A stretch of 64,000 nucleotides of DNA from Escherichia coli 042 (GCF_000027125.1 NC_017626.1); one strand, 5' to 3'. Shown: positions 62,281 through 64,000, numbered from the stretch's first letter. Notes: generated by a model not told the origin, from the letters alone. Translations and numbers: made by a program.

Positions 62281-64000
62281 TTAGAACGACCAGTTCACAC
62301 CAGCTACCGCGTTCCACGGGGATTCCACACCGGCACCATGGCTATACCCCACCCCGAGATGCCCGCTTAATGAACTGCTGAATGAGGCTTTAATACCTGC
62401 CTGGTATATTCCACGTCTGCCCGACAAATCATTGACAAAATTACCGTCATTATTCACTTTCACCCGGTTATCATCGACAAATTCTTTGCGCACAGCCGCC
62501 TTCAGCCACGGCTCAACTTCCATACCGTTCCCCAGACGCATGTTGTAACTCAGCGTTGCGCCCAGTTCACGATATATACTGCGGGTATCGACTGATTTCG
62601 ATTCCATGCCATTGGATAAATGATATTCGGGGTTATCAGCGGTGAACCCCGTTAACGATGCATACGGCGTCAGGTTCCAGTTACCATCGGTAAATCGCAT
62701 CCCGGTTTCAATGTGACCGCCCAGCCCGTTGCTGCGATAACTGCCGTTGGCGGCTCCACCGCTGCTCATTTTACCGGCTACGTTACTTTCAAAACGGTTC
62801 AGCTTCACGATACCGTCCAGATAGAAACCACTTTCATGTTCCCAACTGGCATAGCCGCCCAGAGAATAACTGCCCACACTGCCATGTCCTCCGCGATCAA
62901 AACCGATATGTGAATGGGAATAACCCATAAAAGCGCCCAGCGTGGCAATTCCTTCAGGAATATCATTACGGCTGTCGATCCCCACGGTCATTCCGGTCAG
63001 CGTCTGCTCAAACCCGGCACCCGCATCGGTGGTGACATTATTACGGGTGTTATACGTCGCCCCCCAGACATTATTGTTGTGTGGACTCGCTTTCATTATG
63101 TTCAACCGCTCGCGAATACTGTTTAGCTCAGCATCAAATACCAACGGTAATGTTGCTGCCATATTGAGTACGGCTGCCGTAGAAGGCGTGATGCGTTTCT
63201 CCGGGACGGGTGTCGGCGTTGGATCGGGAGTCGGGTCTGGTTTCGGATCCGGTTTTGGGTCTGGTTTTGGATCCGGTTTCGGATTTGGGTTGGGGTCCGG
63301 GTTGGGTTTGACATCATTGGTCAGGTTCCAGTTGCTGTTGCCGTCGCTTTTCAGGACATACTCATAGGTCCCAAGATCAACGAAACCGCCGGTATTACCC
63401 AGCGTAAACGAAGCATCCCCTCCCCCTGTTTTCACCAGCGTCATCGCGTCGTCAGACTGAGGGCTGACGCCGGTATCCTGAACAAAGATTTTAAAATTAC
63501 CAGTGGCGTTGTTGTTGACGACCAGTTGATCGCCCCGGGAGCCTGCAACGTTGGTATGCAGGTAGAAATTACCGCTGCCGGAAAGTTCACTGGTGGTCAG
63601 CGTATTGTAGATACCGTTAGTTGTGGCAGGCGCTGCTGTTTGTGCTGATAAATAAACATCACCGTCGTTGAGAAGCAAACTGTTTACTCTATATTCGCAG
63701 TTGCTGGTGCCTGCACAGGAATTATTGCTGTTAAGCCAGACACTGCCCCGGCTGGCAGCCGTCAGGTCGGCAAGCGTCGTATCGACGCCATTTCCGATAG
63801 TTAATGTCGCGCTATCGGTAATCCGGACCACCCCTTCAAGTTTAACTGGCGTAACATTATCCCGTGGCGTCATTAACGACAGGCTTCCTGTCGCGCCACT
63901 GACCGATGCATCCGCCAGCGTACCTGCGTAGACGATTGCCGTCCCGCCAGCGATCAGTAGATCTTCTGCCCGGGCCAGAGCCTGAAACTCATCTTTTGAC
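62281..64000 (-). CDS. Autotransporter (type Va) adhesin-like protein, C-terminal part; N-terminus beyond the window
   Basis: Frame open to position 64000; Pro-rich linker PNPDPNPNPKPDPKPDPKPDP; C-terminal beta-barrel domain ending ...AGVNWSF (aromatic terminal residue). Confidence 0.8.
   Translation of the reverse strand, partial: SKDEFQALARAEDLLIAGGTAIVYAGTLADASVSGATGSLSLMTPRDNVTPVKLEGVVRITDSATLTIGNGVDTTLADLTAASRGSVWLNSNNSCAGTSNCEYRVNSLLLNDGDVYLSAQTAAPATTNGIYNTLTTSELSGSGNFYLHTNVAGSRGDQLVVNNNATGNFKIFVQDTGVSPQSDDAMTLVKTGGGDASFTLGNTGGFVDLGTYEYVLKSDGNSNWNLTNDVKPNPDPNPNPKPDPKPDPKPDPKPDPTPDPTPTPVPEKRITPSTAAVLNMAATLPLVFDAELNSIRERLNIMKASPHNNNVWGATYNTRNNVTTDAGAGFEQTLTGMTVGIDSRNDIPEGIATLGAFMGYSHSHIGFDRGGHGSVGSYSLGGYASWEHESGFYLDGIVKLNRFESNVAGKMSSGGAANGSYRSNGLGGHIETGMRFTDGNWNLTPYASLTGFTADNPEYHLSNGMESKSVDTRSIYRELGATLSYNMRLGNGMEVEPWLKAAVRKEFVDDNRVKVNNDGNFVNDLSGRRGIYQAGIKASFSSSLSGHLGVGYSHGAGVESPWNAVAGVNWSF

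Follow-up and report, generated by a model that had tools for sequence, protein, structure and literature searches.

The stretch analysed here, hereafter the window, is 64,000 nucleotides of one strand of the Escherichia coli 042 genome (GCF_000027125.1, NC_017626.1), and its last 1720 nucleotides carry the end of an autotransporter gene that is very probably ypjA (ehaD in enterohaemorrhagic E. coli), which encodes an adhesin of the AIDA-repeat group among the classical (type Va) autotransporters; the window would hold the 3' 38% of the gene. The gene lies on the minus strand at 62281–63999. Translation gives 572 sense codons and then a stop, all in one frame and with no stops in between, and this frame runs unbroken through the window edge at 64000. 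Its TAA stop codon occupies 62283–62281, so that 62281 is the final base of the stop codon, and the encoded protein ends in ...VAGVNWSF. A first-pass annotation, made from the sequence alone, had described a truncated autotransporter here, and translation returned the same coordinates, strand and linker sequence; its placement of the passenger N-terminus and the promoter beyond the window likewise agrees with a frame that is open at the edge. Judged from the nearest alleles, the 5' remainder beyond position 64000 amounts to ~2.86 kb, or ~952 codons, plus the promoter. At lower window coordinates than the autotransporter lie a mobile island (35747–62117) and ssrA, the transfer-messenger RNA (tmRNA) gene, on the plus strand at 35384–35746.

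The identity of the fragment was established by nucleotide comparison (megablast) with a set of 5,426 complete E. coli genomes. Across all 1720 nt, it is 99.7% identical to genes annotated 'adhesin-like autotransporter YpjA/EhaD' in at least 24 complete genomes, including M7424, and it is 96.8% identical both to K-12 ypjA and to ECs_3515 of O157:H7 Sakai. At the protein level, the fragment corresponds to residues 953–1524 of M7424 YpjA, the nearest intact allele, from which it differs at 2 positions (570 of 572 residues match), and in the alignment with K-12 YpjA, 557 of 574 positions are identical. The nearest full-length alleles are intact (1524 aa in M7424, 1522 aa in RM14516) and start with MNRTSPYYCRRSVLSLLISALIYAPPVMA, including a signal peptide of 29 aa, the length tabulated for YpjA in PMC13101318. 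In the full-length M7424 protein, the signal peptide is followed by eight AIDA repeats (PF16168) and then by Pertactin, linker and barrel modules as in the fragment. Because of the identities to M7424, K-12 and Sakai together with this module order, we read the fragment as the last 38% of ypjA, and the comparison with the Ag43, AIDA-I and YpjA families that the first-pass annotation had proposed as a check thus leads to YpjA itself, an ordinary, already described gene at its known place. Scanning the fragment against NCBIfam returned no YpjA-specific model, and two families suggested by that scan were rejected: the best named hit, the C-terminal model of the BafA family, reached 248 bits where the cut-off is 700, and YfaL/EhaC reached 49 bits where it is 1459.

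Domain searches and structure prediction resolve the fragment into four consecutive modules, all encoded on the minus strand. Residues 1–227 (63319–63999) form the C-terminal end of a beta-helical passenger, whose last part (residues 105–227, 63319–63687) is a pertactin-type autochaperone domain matched by Pfam Pertactin (PF03212, 1.3e-45). The passenger part also matches, in sequence searches against solved structures (phmmer), the C-terminal beta-helix of pertactin (1DAB, residues 414–534), IgA1 protease (3H09) and Hap (3SYJ); the pertactin autochaperone has been delimited as D444–L556, and EhaD is listed among the autotransporters that possess one (PMC5767081). A proline-rich linker (residues 232–267) and a single alpha-helix (residues 272–302, 63094–63186) follow, and the fragment closes with a 12-strand outer-membrane beta-barrel (residues 309–572, 62284–63075) that ends in the aromatic C-terminal signal NWSF. 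The barrel is recognised by the Pfam Autotransporter beta-domain (PF03797, residues 311–550, 1.5e-46) and by NCBIfam TIGR01414 (3.4e-98), and the same searches against solved structures match it to Vag8 and to BrkA (3QQ2, 1.4e-24).

A search for distant relatives gave 2,233 representatives at E-values up to 0.001, of which 63 were aligned with the fragment for structure prediction. The resulting AlphaFold model has a mean predicted local distance difference test score (pLDDT) of 92.1 and a predicted template modelling score (pTM) of 0.87. In the model, residues 10–227 are all-beta with pLDDT mostly above 90, residues 228–270 have no regular secondary structure (pLDDT 64–78), residues 272–302 form one helix as assigned by DSSP (pLDDT above 95), and residues 309–571 contain 12 long strands. 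Foldseek searches of the PDB with this model placed the BrkA barrel (3QQ2) at the top, with a target template modelling score (TM-score) of 0.89 and an E-value of 4.6e-24, followed by pre-cleavage EspP (3SLJ), Hbp, AIDA-I (4MEE), NalP (1UYN) and pertactin; target TM-scores were 0.81–0.86 for EspP and 0.65 (E-value 3.6e-17) for the AIDA-I transport unit 4MEE. By analogy with the EspP, NalP and BrkA structures, the helix at residues 272–302 is predicted to lie inside the barrel pore. The fragment thus has the features of a classical type Va autotransporter, namely a 12-strand barrel, a linking helix, a C-terminal aromatic residue and a beta-helical passenger with an autochaperone domain. The domain matches, the model and the Foldseek matches therefore confirm the earlier reading of passenger, linker and barrel: the beta-helical passenger, which the first-pass annotation had proposed from its appearance, is backed by the pertactin, IgA1 protease and Hap homology as well as by the model, the barrel does end in NWSF, and the proline-rich linker does precede it, with the predicted pore helix now added between the two.

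The linker (63199–63306, minus strand), detected in the translation, as a tandem repeat and in the model, reads PNPDPNPNPKPDPKPDPKPDPKPDPTPDPTPTPVPE, that is, 18 consecutive Pro-X dipeptides over 36 residues. The underlying DNA is repetitive at 63219–63307, where Tandem Repeats Finder reports 4.5 copies of a 12-nt period and 3.8 copies of a 24-nt period. Its length varies between alleles, with 36 aa in the window, M7424 and RM14516, 38 in K-12, 40 in Sakai EhaD and 42 in SW070919, and the differences are gains of Pro-X units that keep the frame in every allele read; similarly, genome matches to a 301-nt linker query span 301, 307, 313 or 319 nt. Of the 138 distant representatives with 420 aa or more, 62 (45%) have at least eight prolines per 30-residue window at an equal distance from the C-terminus, in stretches that are mutually unrelated in sequence (PEPEP, PPTPP, PVDP and others). 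Since proline-rich stretches recur at the matching position in distant relatives, we regard the Pro-X linker, on these sequence comparisons, as typical of the family. Conservation of composition and position without conservation of sequence is what a spacer would show, and it gives no hint of a binding site. Judged by its position and composition, the Pro-X stretch just outside the barrel is probably an extended, stiff spacer, up to ~11 nm long if fully in the polyproline-II conformation, that would hold the adhesive beta-helix off the membrane and the lipopolysaccharide layer. Matches of the fragment to Trypan_PARP, SslE, TonB, internalin and ClfB were driven by the composition of this stretch and were disregarded.

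We could delimit the neighbouring island by comparison with the genome SW070919, which has an empty site. Its positions 1–432 align with window positions 35315–35746 and its positions 430–648 with 62118–62336, the CCA end of ssrA being common to both alignments. Because ypjA stands directly beside ssrA in SW070919, without an island, the island in the window comprises 35747–62117, ~26.4 kb inserted exactly at the 3' CCA of ssrA, and chromosomal sequence resumes at 62118, as an alignment with the K-12 psaA remnant also indicates. The same two alignments locate a degenerate right-end attachment remnant of the ssrA island at 62112–62120 on the plus strand (CGCCAG..CCA); an intact right-end repeat of the ssrA 3' end was not found by a repeat search or with a 26-nt pattern allowing up to 3 mismatches. 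In island-free SW070919, ypjA and ssrA are convergent and separated by a 160-nt spacer, whereas the ileY side of the ypjA locus lies beyond the window.

These boundaries bear on whether the gene travels as cargo on the AT-rich mobile island next to it, as the phrase 'island autotransporter' in the first-pass annotation implied. The location makes such a reading understandable, as only 160 nt separate ypjA from the end of the island, ssrA is known as a hotspot of integration, and the gene is missing from about half of the complete genomes. However, SW070919 has ypjA next to ssrA without the island, and the blood isolate AHB1 (NZ_OZ547150.1) shows the converse, carrying the same island at 99.9% identity over 24.9 kb without ypjA; these two genomes rule the cargo explanation out for practical purposes, and we consider it highly improbable. 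Base composition points the same way, since the guanine-plus-cytosine fraction is 0.32–0.46 over 36001–62000 and rises to a core-like 0.51 over 62001–64000, the ypjA region, and different elements flank the same gene elsewhere, CP4-57 in K-12 and prophage Sp17 in Sakai, with ypjA outside the annotated element both times. The island label was therefore not borne out, the gene lying outside 35747–62117. An even more improbable alternative, to which we give next to no credence, is that the fragment belongs not to ypjA proper but to its paralogue at the ycgI locus beside minE. In N96, the gene at that locus shares 98.6% identity with the window across its final 1.7 kb, and the two linkers are the same, but ypjA alleles are nearer still at 99.7%, and the synteny inside the window, where ssrA and the 160-nt spacer adjoin the gene, is that of the ypjA locus and not of the minE side, which rules the paralogue out as the identity of the fragment.

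A more serious alternative concerns the state of the gene, which could be a pseudogene in which a frameshift, a stop or an insertion sequence in the passenger upstream of the window prevents any adhesin from being made. We read seven ypjA loci (M7424, RM14516, K-12, Sakai, SW070919, CFSAN061763 and F765), and two are disrupted, CFSAN061763 by a frameshift and F765 by an IS1203 insertion with a deletion; CFSAN061763 also carries the right-hand end of the window's island type. On the other hand, the gene is intact in the other five, which include the alleles closest to the window (99.7%), and the 572 visible codons, differing from M7424 at only 2 residues, show no decay. We consequently think disruption unlikely, though far from negligible, and prefer an intact ypjA. 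Several points nevertheless weigh against reading the fragment as part of a working adhesin gene with a spacer linker. Besides the two disrupted alleles, the visible part is only the 3' 38% of ypjA, with the rest of the reading frame and the promoter outside the window; ypjA of K-12 is considered to be weakly expressed in the laboratory; and the pLDDT of 64–78 over the linker shows only that the fold there is not compact, its role as a spacer being a proposal.

Two hairpins were found in the spacer between ssrA and ypjA. The larger, to which no strand is assigned, occupies 62248–62271, 9 nt past the ypjA stop, and consists of AAAGCCCAC-agat-GTGGGCTTT followed by TT. For the ypjA (minus) strand, the folding energy is -14.3 kcal/mol (z -3.9); for the plus strand, where the T-run is found, it lies between -15.4 and -16.5 kcal/mol. 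A scan for promoter and terminator consensus sequences did not report it. In AHB1, the stem shows compensatory changes (CCCGC/GCGGG, AAAGCCCGC..GCGGGCTTTTTT), and a second hairpin or palindrome at 62224–62237 carries a compensatory double substitution in the same isolate (GGAGTCGCGACTCC). Because of these compensatory double substitutions, the two hairpins appear to be conserved RNA structures on the 3' flank of ssrA. The larger hairpin belongs to the part of the spacer that is retained with ssrA when ypjA is absent, and it is probably a bidirectional terminator common to the convergent ypjA and ssrA sides.

The distribution of ypjA across the genome set shows a common presence/absence polymorphism. 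The 3' part of ypjA is present at a query coverage of at least 80% in 2,481 of the 5,426 genomes (~46%), 2,524 genomes contain the linker region, and the segment from ypjA to ileY is missing from about half. AHB1 represents the absent state, its homology with the window ending at 62271 and being followed by the upstream region of glaH, and the ssrA-side breakpoint of the polymorphism accordingly falls at 62272–62280, the 9 nt that separate the ypjA stop codon from the terminator hairpin. ypjA is therefore accessory only in a looser sense, on a variable segment and not on an island, and it should be kept apart from the ssrA island when island boundaries and cargo are analysed. As a separate observation, the core stretch from recN to smpB (30000–35380) finds a best identity of 98.7% among the same genomes, against 99.7% for the ypjA fragment; the set may include few members of the source lineage, or the region may be mosaic.

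Additionally, the last 343 nt of ypjA have a second match in most genomes, the ycgI pseudogene adjoining minE. From the sequence of the BL21 locus (3600–4500), this pseudogene is what an internal deletion has left of a ypjA-like gene: the upstream 350 nt and the final 355 nt are retained. The ycgI locus of N96 (locus sequence 1464–6140), by comparison, holds an intact paralogue of 1558 aa with a linker identical to that in the window. This paralogue is 96–99.7% identical to the M7424 ypjA allele from about nucleotide 1200 onwards (the last 3.5 kb) and 61–87% identical in the first 1200 nt, and over most of the stretch after about nucleotide 1200 it is closer to the M7424 allele than K-12 ypjA is. 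Because identity is high after this point and low before it, the alignments suggest sequence exchange between the ypjA and ycgI loci. A bolder proposal, which we advance only tentatively and think rather doubtful, is that ypjA and the paralogue at the ycgI/minE locus swap their 3' two-thirds by gene conversion and, as a second point, that the length of the Pro-X linker (36–42 residues, in dipeptide steps) is tuned to projection past the O-antigen or capsule of each strain.

The island itself starts with a P4-type integrase gene (35871–37142) and carries a MobA/MobL (MobQ) relaxase gene (42352–43860) and TraD-, TraW- and DotA/TraY-like genes (51949–54609), as well as genes for a DNA methylase, DUF3644 and DUF6387 proteins, an AlpA-like regulator and two H-NS-like proteins. 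At least 80% of it is covered in only 3 of the 5,426 genomes. An imperfect direct repeat of 42–83 nt with 81–83% identity is present in two to three copies inside the island, at 41622–41704, 56950–57032 and 57090–57131, and each copy contains the inverted motif TGATTGTT..AACAATCA; the repeat could be an origin of transfer or a regulator-binding site.

The order of the modules and their folds in the fragment match a secretion route that we propose by analogy with established type Va work on EspP, NalP, BrkA and pertactin. The protein would first be exported by the Sec pathway, after which the beta-barrel assembly machinery (BAM) complex would insert the barrel into the outer membrane. The passenger would be threaded outward C-terminus first, the helix would come to rest in the barrel pore, and the autochaperone domain would fold first and template the remaining beta-helix.

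As for function, the adhesive AIDA-repeat part of the passenger lies outside the window, and the adhesin role is taken from the literature. According to two reviews, adhesion and biofilm formation both increase when YpjA/EhaD is expressed (PMC3796261, PMC12547504). A further review places YpjA by phylogeny in the biofilm-forming AIDA-I/Ag43 group and treats it as a possible self-associating member whose mechanism is unknown and for which no structure has been solved (PMC9289746). The appropriate annotation is ypjA/ehaD (partial), an autotransporter already known to promote biofilm formation and adhesion. The linker variants, the exchange with the paralogue and the breakpoint 9 nt from the stop may be of use to those working on adhesin variation or on YpjA as a surface-display scaffold, although none of the linker variants, the ycgI-locus exchange and the breakpoint is surprising.

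The closest known counterparts are YpjA of K-12 (b2647, 1526 aa) and EhaD of O157:H7 (ECs_3515, 1528 aa). Both are products of the gene seen here, which in those strains occupies the same position, convergent to ssrA, and encodes the autochaperone domain, the Pro-X linker, the helix and the barrel in the same order. The window allele has 15 substitutions relative to K-12 YpjA and ends in TAA where K-12 ypjA ends in TGA, and the mobile element at its ssrA site differs from those of K-12 and Sakai. Among other E. coli adhesins, AIDA-I, Ag43 and TibA likewise belong to the type Va autotransporters and have an adhesive passenger folded as a beta-helix, and the nearest full-length ypjA allele shares the AIDA repeats, with eight copies. 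Those three proteins are self-associating, whereas YpjA is only a possible member of that class according to the review cited above (PMC9289746), and in target TM-score the transport unit of AIDA-I (0.65) is less like the barrel in the window than that of BrkA (0.89).

Outside the family, the proline-rich rod of TonB, with its Glu-Pro and Lys-Pro repeats, likewise has alternating Pro-X dipeptides that include charged residues and offers an analogy for a stiff extended spacer only. There is no homology, the match of the TonB model to the fragment being weak and composition-driven (E-value 5e-4), and whereas TonB spans the periplasm, the linker described here is predicted to lie at the cell surface outside the barrel. 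Structural parallels also come from Bordetella, in which pertactin matches the autochaperone domain (1.2e-15) and BrkA matches the barrel both by sequence (1.4e-24) and in the Foldseek comparison (4.6e-24), at a sequence identity of only ~23–24%. Pertactin also has proline-rich repeats near the C-terminal end of its passenger. The organism differs, however, and so does the upstream passenger, the Bordetella proteins being without AIDA repeats.
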